A DNA stretch of 64,000 nt from Candidatus Bathyarchaeota archaeon (GTDB taxonomy: Archaea; Thermoproteota; Bathyarchaeia; Bathyarchaeales; Bathycorpusculaceae): contig CAVZIW010000004.1 of the NCBI GenBank assembly GCA_963775465.1, positions 128,040 through 192,039 on the forward strand. The letters are read 5' to 3'. Position numbers and translations under genes: made by a program. The notes below the pieces were generated by a model that worked only from the letters and a program-made list of their open reading frames with translations, ran no database searches and was not told where the DNA came from. Position 1 is the stretch's first letter. Each line of letters starts with the position of its first letter. Shown here piece by piece: positions 55,448 to 59,316 of the stretch.

Positions 55448-56089
55448 TTAACTTCCTGCTTTGAGGAGACTACTTTTCTCCTCATCCGATAATTCCTTGT
55501 AGCCATTGTTGTCGATAACGATGATGTTGTAGCTGTTACCAGAAGCAACATCCCGCTTCATGGCAGCATTAACTGCTCTAGCAATAATGGGTAAGAGCTC
55601 ATCAATAGTCATACCTTCATGATACTTATCTTCAAGAATGCCGTAAGCAATCGGGGAGCCAGAACCGGTAGAGACAGATTTTTCTTCAGTTAAACTCCCA
55701 TACGGATCTAAATTGTAAACGTGTGGACCTGTTTCGTCAATTCCACCGACCAACACCTGCGTTGCCAAAGGAATGTATCGAGCAGAGAAAAGCAAGTTTG
55801 CAACTAGCCTCGCTGCCGAACTGATGGGTATAGGGCGATTTAGGTTTATTTTGTAGAGACGAGCATTAGCAGTTAAGATGTCAACTACACGTTGGGCATC
55901 GGCAACTGTTCCAGCAATGGTCATACCAATGTGATCATCGATTTTGTAAACTTTTTTGCCTGCTTTATGCGCAACATAATACCCCATTGTGACCCGGGTG
56001 TCTGATGCTAAAATTACACCGTCTTTACAGACAACACCCATCGTTGTAGTTCCCTTTAACACTAGTTGGTCAATTGTATTTTGTGACAT
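55448..56089 (-). CDS. psmB: Proteasome beta subunit
   Basis: Propeptide-KG/TTT, ASDTR, GSGS, RDVASG; conserved adjacency to aCPSF1. Confidence 0.97.
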   Translation of the reverse strand: MSQNTIDQLVLKGTTTMGVVCKDGVILASDTRVTMGYYVAHKAGKKVYKIDDHIGMTIAGTVADAQRVVDILTANARLYKINLNRPIPISSAARLVANLLFSARYIPLATQVLVGGIDETGPHVYNLDPYGSLTEEKSVSTGSGSPIAYGILEDKYHEGMTIDELLPIIARAVNAAMKRDVASGNSYNIIVIDNNGYKELSDEEKSSLLKAGS

Positions 56090-56560: not shown

Positions 56561-56731
56561 TTAAACAAACGAACGCTGATAACACTCTTCATGCCGCATT
56601 GAGGTACCCTTTCGAGAAGCAACACGCTGCCCCTCAACAATGGGCTGATGACAAATAACACAGAAAACGCAACCCCGTTTTTGCATGCGAATTAGGAGTC
56701 TATGGTTTATTACATAATGGTTTAACGCCAT
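56561..56731 (-). CDS. 56-aa zinc-finger microprotein
   Basis: Hand-translated MALNHYVINHRLLIRMQKRGCVFCVICHQPIVEGQRVASRKGTSMRHEECYQRSFV (CxxC...HxxC); GGAG upstream. Confidence 0.7.
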   Translation of the reverse strand: MALNHYVINHRLLIRMQKRGCVFCVICHQPIVEGQRVASRKGTSMRHEECYQRSFV

Positions 56732-56784
56732 GCCACACATCTCTCCTTGCTCTTGATTGAATCACCATCAATAAAATGCTTTTT

Positions 56785-56829
56785 CGTAAAATTTCTTTGA
56801 CTAAACTTAGTCAAACTTTCTTGACTAAA
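56785..56829. promoter_or_regulatory. Tandem palindromic operator array (copy B)
   Basis: TCGTAAA-N6-TTGACTAA-AC-TTAGTCAA-N6-TTGACTAAA. Confidence 0.6.
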
Positions 56830-56885
56830 TAAAAACCGCCTACAGCTCGCAAAGTTTTTATCCAAGCAATAAGTTTTGGATGGCT

Positions 56886-56955
56886 AATTGGCGGGTGAGT
56901 GTGTCTCATGCCCGTTCCGCCAACAAAAAAATAAATCCCGGGAGAAAAGAGACAA
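56886..56955 (+). promoter_or_regulatory. Structured 5' leader of queT-queC; candidate translational riboswitch
   Basis: P1 TTGGCGG/CCGCCAA; loop CCCG and TGTCTC complementary to CGGG and GAGACA around the RBS; A-rich linker; TATA-like TTTTTATC at 56855..56862. Confidence 0.55.
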
Positions 56956-57459
56956 ATGTCCAATAAAATAAGTTCAAAAAGCCTAGCTTTAATTGCAATC
57001 TACGCTGCACTCTACGCAGCACTTGTAGTTGGTTTTGGAGGAATCTCTTATGGACCTGGCCAAGTCCGAATCGCAGACTCAATGATTGCCACCGTGCCCC
57101 TATTGGGTATAGCAGGAGTTCTCGGCCATACACTCGGCGTGTTTGTCGCAAACATTTTTTCGACAGCAGGCCCCTTAGATTTGCTTAATACCATTCCATC
57201 TTTTGCCATGTCATTTGTAGTCTACTACGTATACAAGAAAACTCAAAATGACTACACTGTAATCGGAACATGCATAGCATACTCAGCTGTTCTAGGAATA
57301 ACTGTAGGCTGGATGCTATCATACGTATTCGGTGCACCCCTACTTCCAACCATGCTATATGTAACCTTAGGAAACACAATAGCCAGCGTCCTCATCGGAT
57401 GGCCAGTCTTTAAAGTTCTAAAGAAAACAGGCATATTCCAAAAATGGTTTCCAAAATGA
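56956..57459 (+). CDS. queT: QueT-family (COG4708) 7-deazaguanine precursor transporter component
   Basis: AIYAALYAAL...ISYGPGQVRIAD...GHTLGVFVANIFS..GPLD. Confidence 0.85.
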   Translation: MSNKISSKSLALIAIYAALYAALVVGFGGISYGPGQVRIADSMIATVPLLGIAGVLGHTLGVFVANIFSTAGPLDLLNTIPSFAMSFVVYYVYKKTQNDYTVIGTCIAYSAVLGITVGWMLSYVFGAPLLPTMLYVTLGNTIASVLIGWPVFKVLKKTGIFQKWFPK

Positions 57460-57468
57460 GGAAAAGCC

Positions 57469-58125
57469 ATGAAACAAACACAAAAAGCAGTAATCGTTCT
57501 TAGCGGCGGACCAGACTCCGCCACAGTTGCCTACTGGTCAAAACAGCAAGGCTACCAAATTTACCCCATAACCTTCAAATACGGACAAATCGCCGTCAAA
57601 GAAACCAAAGCCGCCCAAAAAATCGCCCACACACTTGACACATCAACAAAAATAATCGACCTCTCAGCCCTCAAAGACATCTTCAGCAAAACAACCTCCC
57701 TAGTCAACCCAGACATACCACTAACAACCGAATTCAGCACACCAATAATTGTCCCCTTCCGAAACGCCATCTTCCTCTCCGCCGCAGTAGCATACGCAGT
57801 CACCCTTAAAGCAACCAAAATCTTCTATGGCGCCCAAAGCTCAGACGAACCCTTCTACCCCGACTGCCGACGCGAATTCTACCAAGCCTTCGAAAAAGCC
57901 GCACAACTAGGAACCTGCGAAGACATCACCATCCAAGCTCCCTTTAGCAAACTAACCAAAACCCAACTAATCAAAAAAGGCGCAAAACTAGGCGTACCCT
58001 TCGAACTCACATGGTCCTGCTACCTTGACGACGCCAAACACTGCGGAAAATGCGAATCCTGCATCAACCGAAAAAAAGCCTTCCAACAAGCAGCAATCCC
58101 AGACCCAACAATTTACCAAACATAA
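57469..58125 (+). CDS. queC: 7-cyano-7-deazaguanine (preQ0) synthase
   Basis: LSGGPDS, YGQ, VPFRNAIFL, YPDCR, TWSCY, CGKCESC. Confidence 0.96.
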   Translation: MKQTQKAVIVLSGGPDSATVAYWSKQQGYQIYPITFKYGQIAVKETKAAQKIAHTLDTSTKIIDLSALKDIFSKTTSLVNPDIPLTTEFSTPIIVPFRNAIFLSAAVAYAVTLKATKIFYGAQSSDEPFYPDCRREFYQAFEKAAQLGTCEDITIQAPFSKLTKTQLIKKGAKLGVPFELTWSCYLDDAKHCGKCESCINRKKAFQQAAIPDPTIYQT

Positions 58126-58233: not shown

Positions 58234-59316
58234 CTAAAACAAAGTCTTCTGCTTCTCAAAAGAAACAAAACCAGAAACCCTAACACCCACAAGCCTCACC
58301 TTACGCGAAGACAACAAAAAAGGCAAAACAAGATCCATTGCAACCTTCTTCAAATCCTCCAAACGACTAGTAAAACGAGGCAACGTTACACTTCTTGTAT
58401 GGGTCTCAAAACCCCGATAACGAATCTTAACGGCTACGTTCTTGAACAACAGGTGCTGAATATTGATTTCTTTCGAAACATCCTCACAGAGCCCACCCAA
58501 AGCCTGAAGAACGATGCCAGAATCTGCAGTGTCTTCTTCGAACGTAATTTCATGACTTACACTCTTAACACCCACACGTTCATCAACTTCACTTCGATCA
58601 AGACCTTTTGCCATCAAATACATCTGCAAACCCATCACCCCAAACATAGAGCTCAATGCCGCAGGATCAAAACGCGCTAAGTCGCCAACAGTGTTTACAC
58701 CCAAAGCTTTGAGTTTAGCTTCAGTTTTTCGTCCAACCCACAACAATTTGCGCACAGGCAAAGGATCAAGAAAATCTACCACACACTCATCTCTAACCAC
58801 CGTTAAACCATCAGGCTTCTGAAAATCACTAGCCACTTTAGCAACAAGCTTATTGGAACCTACACCACTTGAGGCAGTTAGACATTCTTTTTCTTTTATT
58901 TCAAGCTTAATCTGCCGAGCCAACATTTCAGCTTCAACCCAATCCCTCACCCTGCCCGTGACATCCAAAAAAGCCTCATCAATGCCCCACTGCTCAAACT
59001 TTACCGCAAACTTACATGCTATGGCCATGATTTCACCCGTAACTTTCCCATACAATGGAAAATTAGGTCTCAAATACACCGCTTCTGGACACAAACTCCA
59101 CGCTTTAGAAATCGGCATTCCAGAAAACACACCAACCGCTCGAGCTTCATAATTGCTGGTGCTAACTACACCTCTACCCTTGCCTTCTTTGGGATCAGAA
59201 CCAACAATAACCGGGCATCCTCTAATTTCAGGGCGTTCCCGCTCCTCAACAGCAGTATAGAAATGATCCATATCTAAAAGAAAAATAAAACGCTTTTTCC
59301 CAGTCATACAAATCAA
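58234..59316 (-). CDS. dinB: Y-family DNA polymerase IV (DinB/Dpo4)
   Basis: DMDHFYTAVE, STSNYEAR, GIDEAFLD, AKVASDFQKPDG, VRLVGVRV. Confidence 0.96.
   Translation of the reverse strand: MICMTGKKRFIFLLDMDHFYTAVEERERPEIRGCPVIVGSDPKEGKGRGVVSTSNYEARAVGVFSGMPISKAWSLCPEAVYLRPNFPLYGKVTGEIMAIACKFAVKFEQWGIDEAFLDVTGRVRDWVEAEMLARQIKLEIKEKECLTASSGVGSNKLVAKVASDFQKPDGLTVVRDECVVDFLDPLPVRKLLWVGRKTEAKLKALGVNTVGDLARFDPAALSSMFGVMGLQMYLMAKGLDRSEVDERVGVKSVSHEITFEEDTADSGIVLQALGGLCEDVSKEINIQHLLFKNVAVKIRYRGFETHTRSVTLPRFTSRLEDLKKVAMDLVLPFLLSSRKVRLVGVRVSGFVSFEKQKTLF

Follow-up and report, generated by a model that had tools for sequence, protein, structure and literature searches.

The archaeal queT motif: a conserved leader of queT-queC and a probable translational riboswitch for a 7-deazaguanine

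The queT-queC leader and its occurrence in archaea

Does the short leader in front of an archaeal queT-queC gene pair sense a 7-deazaguanine, and does it thereby control translation of both genes? This question is raised by a stretch of 64,000 nucleotides (the window) from a Candidatus Bathyarchaeota archaeon (assembly GCA_963775465.1, contig CAVZIW010000004.1, positions 128,040 to 192,039 of the forward strand). The candidate leader extends from about 56886 to 56955 of the window on the plus strand; the positions below are those of the window and its plus strand unless otherwise noted. A preliminary description had proposed a pseudoknot riboswitch at this place, possibly for preQ0. Comparison with other genomes indicates that the leader belongs to a cis-regulatory RNA that is widespread in archaea and is here named the archaeal queT motif. 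The motif is real, widespread and apparently undescribed, and it is probably a translational OFF-riboswitch of a new structural class, which would sense a 7-deazaguanine and control queT-queC.

A TATA-like box, the strands of three helices (P1, P2 and P3), an A-rich linker and the ATG had been marked beforehand, and all of them were found in place when the sequence was read. P1 is formed by UUGGCGG (56888-94) and CCGCCAA (56917-23). Its loop begins with the conserved junction GUGAG (56895-56899), which is either unpaired or the 5' strand of an inner hairpin. In the window this hairpin has the form UGAG/CUCA (56896-56908), and its 3' strand shares bases with the 5' strand of P3. That P3 strand, UGUCUC (56902-07), is complementary to the region of the ribosome-binding site; its partner GAGACA (56949-54) stands directly 5' of the start codon. 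The 5' strand of P2, CCCG (56911-14), is complementary to CGGG (56939-42), which is overlapped by the Shine-Dalgarno (SD)-like word GGGAG (56940-44), the two together occupying 56939-56944. A conserved UU junction (56915-56916), identified in an alignment of 27 leaders, leads from P2 to P1. The A-rich linker (L3), placed by alignments at 56924-38, follows P1; its ANAAA before a run of C is conserved, and the part preceding this is variable in length.

The gene identities were confirmed by Pfam. queT (56956-57459, ATG at 56956) encodes an energy-coupling factor (ECF)-type S component of 167 aa (PF06177, E 3e-22), and queC (57469-58125), 9 nt after queT, encodes a 7-cyano-7-deazaguanine synthase of 218 aa (PF06508, E 5.8e-63).

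The riboswitch had been made to stand or fall with the conservation of the leader among orthologues. A QueT search of 61 related genomes gave 25 orthologues from the same genus, with protein identities of 61-98%, and their leaders align nearly without gaps from P1 through the SD; the leader is thus kept in these orthologues, and it is also kept beyond them. A covariance model (R1) was built on 27 orthologous leaders, with P1 as the sole annotated helix. In the own genome it finds a single copy at 72 bits, the next match being at 11.6 bits. Matches are present in 90 of 120 genomes of the genus, in 131 of 151 genomes of the order at E<=1 (115 at E<=1.5e-7; all 12 families), and in 97 of 151 genomes of the class (92 at E<=4.8e-6). 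Outside the class, a sample of the phylum gave 15 genomes, from families f44 (9/15), f56 (3/3), f60 (2/2) and f64. In a second archaeal phylum, sampled around a genome titled Promethearchaeota, 23 of 121 genomes carry the motif. It is nearly always a single copy per genome.

A loose two-word DNA pattern was also run against one genome per prokaryote species. This gave at least 120 stretches, 80 of which were taken as loci, and the result is not a census. Most of the matches listed are chance matches in G+C-rich bacteria. When R1 was applied to the 80 loci, 17 of the matches listed were full-length (>=40 bits), all archaeal by record title: 13 Bathyarchaeota/Bathyarchaeia, and one each from Methanomethylicota, Nitrososphaerota, an unclassified archaeon and Promethearchaeota. 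Bacterial loci among the matches listed gave just five partial R1 matches, at <=21 bits.

The genes behind the motif are strikingly uniform. By a simple open reading frame (ORF) rule, an ORF directly 3' of the motif was found for 88 of 99 R1 matches; the other 11 include a tRNA false positive, unusual start codons and cuts at contig ends. According to Pfam, this ORF is QueT in 84 of the 88 cases, and it is QueT in all 10 cases tested in the second phylum. Genomes with two copies of the motif have two QueT paralogues, and the second copies precede QueT in 9 of 9 cases. The motif is thus coupled to a single transporter family, in the manner of riboswitches. At 46 of 66 motif loci the ORF that comes after QueT is QueC. 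The remaining four of the 88 ORFs, all from one family of the class, encode a multi-pass membrane protein of 229-234 aa (L094:1570-2271, L095:1570-2271, L099:1567-2262 and, on the minus strand, L103:810-1496). This protein has no match in Pfam or NCBIfam and no BLASTP similarity to the QueT of the window; it may be an unrecognised 7-deazaguanine transporter.

The same gene context bears on the idea of a protein operator, in which ArcTGT, QueC or another regulator would bind the fold of P1 and the inner hairpin; in the extreme form, ArcTGT would treat the leader as a tRNA-like substrate. The sole R1 false positive among the fetched loci is the T-arm and acceptor 3' half of a tRNA (L137:1501-1568, 23 bits), and P1 with the inner hairpin is somewhat like a tRNA minihelix in sequence. 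In addition, archaea mostly regulate via proteins and riboswitches are rare there, as stated in a 2017 census (PMC5473149). However, no candidate regulator gene accompanies the motif: what follows it is QueT and, in most cases, QueC behind that. The inner loop of 4-6 nt is without the T-loop consensus, and the stems are parted by the 5-nt insert CCGUU, unlike those of tRNA; with no T-loop and two separated stems, a tRNA mimic was rejected. A P1 followed by an A-rich linker and a tail that pairs back into the loop is how pseudoknot riboswitches for small molecules are built. A protein operator therefore seems very unlikely.

Pairing and covariation of P1, P2 and P3

Base pairs were counted in 98 distinct sequences from the two phyla. 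At the proposed pairs, 87.5% of the cells hold standard pairs, compared with 41.9-59.8% when the partners are slid by 1-3 columns, and the observed covariation score is reached by 0 of 500 shuffles; earlier alignments gave the same pairing picture. P1 is a stem of 7 bp whose three central pairs are invariant (a GCG/CGC core), which suggests that the core takes part in tertiary contacts. The other four pairs change on both sides and vary as GC88/CG10 (innermost), GC66/AU14/CG2, UA26/AU20/GC7/CG4 and UA14/AU7/GU7. These compensatory changes bear out the P1 of the preliminary description. Covariation in orthologous leaders, which had also been named in advance as a point on which the proposal could fail, is present for both P1 and P3.

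From 5' to 3', the family consensus reads GGCGG, GUGA, the inner hairpin (GUGGG, a loop of 4-6 nt and CCCAC), CCG, UU and CCGCC, the last being the 3' strand of P1. Behind it stand 0-10 variable bases, ANAAA, a run of C, CGG, 2-4 bases and the SD word GGAGG. In the alignment of 27 sequences, G10, U11 and G12 of the GUGAG junction are invariant and A13 and G14 are conserved in at least 90%; GUAGG and GUGG occur as variants in the wider set. The first U of the UU junction is conserved in at least 90% of the 27 sequences and the second is invariant, and the CCGUU junction is kept in nearly all of 100 matches. In preQ1-I riboswitches the A-rich linker lies in the minor groove of P1, and by analogy the linker of the queT motif might lie there as well. 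The C-run of the tail and the G-run of the inner hairpin correlate loosely in length, with counter-examples. A kink-turn at GUGA/CCGUU was rejected by eye, the unbulged strand being without GA.

P3, which joins an anti-SD strand in the loop to the SD region, changes on both sides at six of its seven pairs; examples are CG85/GC5, CG53/UG10/UA7 and GU24/GC19/UA7/UG4/AU3. Across the family, the two strands follow the whole-word rule CCUCC/GGAGG. Both words are exchanged together for CUCGC/GCGAG in the second phylum, for CUUCC/GGAAG and CCGAC/GUCGG in other copies, and for GUCUC/GAGAC in the window and two relatives. The helix UGUCUC/GAGACA beside the start codon, as proposed for the window alone, thus covaries and is replaced elsewhere by other complementary words. 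The anti-SD word CCUCC of most relatives has the letters of the 3' end of 16S rRNA in this genome (CACCUCC). The 16S rRNA gene is located on the same contig, about 41 kb before the window (G000:C4:86581-88073; L308:1500-2993, minus strand), and its 3' end reads ...GGAUCACCUCC. This would fit SD-dependent initiation on GGAGG words in this lineage.

The window itself departs from the common arrangement. In most relatives the SD word GGAGG is 4-9 nt 5' of the start codon, inside P3. In the window the SD word of this distal helix survives in the degenerate form AGAGAC, with a matching change in the loop strand, so that GAGACA is compensatory relative to the family consensus. GGGAG at 56940-44, 11 nt 5' of the ATG, is the sole good SD-like word in this leader, and it overlaps the P2 strand. 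P2 and P3 would both still block initiation in the window.

Several observations weigh against a pseudoknot riboswitch. The 98 sequences are kin, so that shuffle counts overstate significance and are not probabilities. The outer pairs of P3 are often unpaired (36/93 at 21:78 and 22/96 at 22:77), and the alignment is poor at the junction of P2 and P3, where 45 of 86 sequences leave 29:66 unpaired. Since any SD pairs with a word resembling the anti-SD, some of the complementarity in P3 is imposed by the ribosome; independent evidence comes from the flanking pairs and from the lineages with altered SD words. The helix CCCG/CGGG (P2) of the preliminary description is complementary and conserved, but its three core pairs CCG:CGG (CG95, CG78/UG5 and GC98 of 98) never vary on both sides and give no covariation support; its outer pair is CG45/UA8/UG4, with 41 unpaired. 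The inner hairpin in its family form GUGGG/CCCAC is 88.2% paired with almost no covariation, the compensatory events being just one or two (U:A to C:G in L206, G:C to U:A in the window). The folding energy of the window leader is ordinary (z = -0.26 versus shuffles); single-sequence energy is thus uninformative, and the case rests on comparative evidence. Finally, the ligand is a guess from gene context, and the position that pairs with the ligand in preQ1-I is U here.

Taken together, a pseudoknot that sequesters the SD is well supported by the alignments as far as P1 and P3 are concerned. P2, for which its conservation and direct stacking on the SD helix speak, is unproven, and P1 would have to form simultaneously with P2 and P3.

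Some of the above points would also be expected of a ligand-independent leader, in which the SD/anti-SD pseudoknot sets a low constitutive level of translation, protects the 5' end of the mRNA or serves as an RNA thermometer. What can strictly be read from the alignments is occlusion of the SD by an anti-SD word; the lack of covariation in P2, the expected wall of a binding pocket, and the ordinary folding energy agree with this explanation. However, GUGA, CCGUU, ANAAA-CCC and the GCG/CGC core are kept over two phyla, which is unusual for thermometers and attenuators. Such elements are also seldom tied to one gene family, in contrast to the association with QueT described above. Moreover, the lineages that carry the motif vary widely in G+C content and probably in habitat too. 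A ligand-independent leader accordingly appears decidedly unlikely.

Promoter, switching and the proposed ligand

The position of the transcription start was estimated from the regions 5' of the motif copies, 112 of them distinct. Relative to the second G of P1, their A/T fraction is highest between -35 and -30, at 0.86-0.90, and 66 of the 112 have their best TATA-like 8-mer beginning between -39 and -33. In the window, TTTTTATC (56855-62) was read directly at -36 to -29 from this G (56891). The usual archaeal spacing between TATA box and start would put the start a few bases 5' of P1. The conserved TATA position together with this spacing supports a start just before P1, matching the earlier estimate of about 56886.

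It should be mentioned that an inverted repeat, TTGACTAA/TTAGTCAA, is found at 56797-56814, about 40 nt 5' of the TATA box, with a third copy, TTGACTAAA, at 56821-29. These repeats (56797-56829) might be bound by a transcription factor acting on the queT promoter, or might mark where the upstream unit ends. The neighbouring genes are ordinary: a proteasome subunit (55448-56089, minus strand) 5' of queT, and a Y-family DNA polymerase with IMS domains (58234-59316, minus strand), convergent with queC.

Single-sequence minimum free energy (MFE) folding predicts an inner hairpin within P1 for the majority of 92 leaders. Since the anti-SD word forms the 3' strand of this hairpin, the inner hairpin and the SD helix are mutually exclusive. 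The preliminary description had contained a second fold, in which GGCGGG pairs with CCCGUU outside the inner hairpin. The inner part of this fold stands, since the inner hairpin does compete with the SD helix. The outer pairing is not supported, since it is broken in GGCGCG variants, for which the compensation falls in P1. The sole real competitor of the SD helix is thus the inner hairpin, which coexists with P1. In the window, rough energies are -9.7 kcal/mol for P1 alone, -11.9 kcal/mol for P1 with the inner hairpin and -15.5 kcal/mol for the MFE structure; the duplex of loop and tail has -14.0 kcal/mol (RNAduplex), before any pseudoknot penalty. Because these rough energies are similar, the two states are plausibly balanced, and a two-state switch between the inner hairpin and anti-SD pairing is plausible.

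These features can be assembled into a model. P1 would enclose the GUGA junction, the small inner hairpin and the CCGUU junction, and the A-rich linker would follow. The tail would pair back into the P1 loop twice, CGG with CCG (P2) and the SD region and its flanks with the anti-SD CCUCC (P3), so that P1, P2 and P3 would form an H-type pseudoknot burying the ribosome-binding site. In the alternative state, the inner hairpin would tie up the anti-SD strand and leave the SD exposed. A 7-deazaguanine might bind at the junction of P1 and P2 and stabilize the pseudoknot, and its binding would shut off translation of QueT and, by coupling, of QueC. The ligand would most likely be preQ0, the base that ArcTGT inserts into tRNA for archaeosine, or possibly its precursor 7-carboxy-7-deazaguanine (CDG). 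Binding of a ligand, its identity, the direction of regulation and the part played by the inner hairpin are what this model proposes beyond the alignments.

Ligand sensing nevertheless seems the most likely function of the leader, and a fairly probable one. The motif is a conserved and covarying 5' leader, it stands before genes of one pathway, and its expression platform overlaps the aptamer, as is expected of riboswitches. This reading is based on the exclusive association with queT and on the architecture of small pseudoknot riboswitches, in which a tail behind P1 and an A-rich linker pairs into the loop. It is also based on the long invariant unpaired junctions, the invariant P1 core and the fusion of the expression platform to the aptamer.

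The gene content of the genome was considered with respect to the ligand. TGT is present in the own genome as an ORF of 546 aa, and QueF was not found there. This combination agrees with a route to archaeosine that starts at preQ0 and not at preQ1. A search for QueD (PTPS, PF01242) likewise gave nothing in the own genome, and in the order it gave matches in just 4 of 101 genomes, or 3 of 78 high-quality ones. For QueE, two NCBIfam models gave only generic radical S-adenosylmethionine (SAM) matches in the own genome, the best being NrdG beside NrdD; the absence of QueE is likely but not firm. The ECF T component is present. The queT-queC pair may thus be a module for salvage that imports CDG or a related base and then converts it to preQ0; this salvage is deduced from the presence and absence of genes in incomplete genomes. 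The sensed ligand could be preQ0 or CDG. There is about an even chance that the whole proposal holds, namely that the motif is the first archaea-specific riboswitch class, distinct from preQ1-I, -II and -III, which senses preQ0 or CDG and gates salvage by QueT import and QueC finishing in lineages where QueD is mostly missing and de novo synthesis of the base would hence be impossible. Such a class would occur in the majority of Bathyarchaeia, in further lineages of Thermoproteota and in part of the phylum titled Promethearchaeota (Asgard).

Riboswitches are abundant in bacteria and scarce in archaea, and a motif present in about 60-75% of the sampled genomes of the class and in a second phylum would change this picture, the class being among the most abundant of archaea. 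If the riboswitch reading is correct, the motif would be a fourth solution to the sensing of 7-deazaguanines and a case of SD-based riboregulation in archaea. Since QueD is missing in nearly all genomes of the order, the motif would suggest that these uncultured archaea depend on 7-deazaguanines from their surroundings, a point of possible importance for cultivating them. With 60-70 nt, it might also serve as a compact part for archaeal genetic tools.

Comparison with known riboswitch classes

All 4227 families of Rfam 15 were compared with positions 56600-57200 by cmscan at E<=10, and only six chance-level matches to unrelated families were obtained. The models of preQ1-I, preQ1-II, preQ1-III (which we take to be RF02680), SAM-II (presumably RF00521) and SAM-V (presumably RF01826) gave no match, in agreement with the earlier view that the leader does not belong to a canonical preQ1 class. 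Eight related loci and a second leader type, described below, likewise gave chance-level matches to unrelated families alone. In the published full-text literature, subscription-only papers excluded, no report of an archaeal preQ1 or preQ0 riboswitch or of a queT leader motif was found.

The closest likeness is to preQ1-I. Riboswitches of this class control que genes and transporters and fold as an H-type pseudoknot: P1 is short and G+C-rich, an A-rich linker comes after it, and the 3' tail enters the P1 loop; in translational forms the tail overlaps the SD. The minimal aptamer measures about 34 nt; its L1 is short, and its L2 ends in the C pairing with the ligand. The queT motif shares the order of elements and the A-rich linker, and its tail would likewise pair into the P1 loop; its P1 covaries, its linker is conserved and its P2 core is invariant. 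It differs in the GUGA junction, in the inserted hairpin, which gives an L1 of 14-20 nt, in the long P3 over the whole SD and in its length, which is about twice as great. L2 is UU in nearly all copies. As the ligand-pairing C of preQ1-I is U here, the pocket cannot be copied from preQ1-I. Among the matches listed, the queT motif was seen in archaea and not in bacteria.

Such a likeness raises the explanation that the leader is a very divergent preQ1-I riboswitch, with L1 expanded by the inserted hairpin and the expression platform fused onto P2. The shared order of elements, with a tail strand beside or inside the SD, would be explained in this way. The second leader type also bears on it. 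This leader occurs in genomes of the same genus without the main motif, 5' of a QueT paralogue of about 32% identity (L027:1448-1496, L028:1448-1496, L030:1452-1500, L142:413-461 and, on the minus strand, L139:619-667, L140:597-645 and L282:1501-1548). It consists of a 5-bp P1, a 14-nt loop with CCG, an A-run and a CCGG that merges into the SD; a variable hairpin and a TTAATATAG box stand 5' of this leader. Being free of the insert, it has the look of an intermediate that links the queT motif with the preQ1-I of bacteria. When a model of it (R2) was run on 151 genomes of the class, a single additional genuine copy came up, the other matches being at <=22.5 bits and inside ORFs. This leader seems to be a minimal version of the same design, and it supports the idea that archaeal queT genes are riboregulated.

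On the other hand, the Rfam PreQ1 model (RF00522) is silent at the queT leaders of the own genome and four relatives; its best matches elsewhere in these five genomes are at <=23 bits, and nothing reaches the cut-off of 39 bits. At E<=10 it is also silent in the window and in the second leader type. The UU of L2 in place of a loop ending in the ligand-pairing C, and the doubled length of the aptamer, argue against membership as well. A very divergent preQ1-I is therefore rather unlikely, although the queT motif, taken as a class of its own, may be a distant offshoot of preQ1-I.

The preQ1-II class is known only from Lactobacillales; its SD is the 3' strand of the pseudoknot helix, and a hairpin is embedded in the pseudoknot. 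In the queT motif the embedded hairpin is elsewhere, and the conserved nucleotides and layout differ. The two are alike in the SD within the 3' strand of the pseudoknot and in the location 5' of queT, bacterial queT genes being known to follow preQ1 riboswitches (PMC5372724). The preQ1-II model (RF01054) has no match in the window leader (E<=10) or in the eight related loci (E<=1).

The preQ1-III class is likewise a pseudoknot aptamer for 7-deazaguanines in which the SD is controlled by helix formation, but it has about 100 nt and a distal SD, and the queT motif gives no Rfam match to it. SAM-II and SAM-V are H-type pseudoknots in which the ligand stabilizes the helix containing the SD. They differ from the queT motif in their methionine/SAM context and in the U-rich strand that forms their major-groove triplex, as compared with the A-rich linker of the motif.

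The 2017 census (PMC5473149) describes preQ1-III as very rare: its 86 examples come from a single bacterial lineage or from metagenomes. The archaeal riboswitches given there belong to classes shared with bacteria, mainly those for thiamine pyrophosphate (TPP) and fluoride, with occasional flavin mononucleotide, Mg2+-I and guanidine-II riboswitches and no preQ1 class. The archaeal riboswitches for TPP, fluoride and the like are thus held in common with bacteria, whereas the queT motif, among the matches listed, is found solely in archaea.

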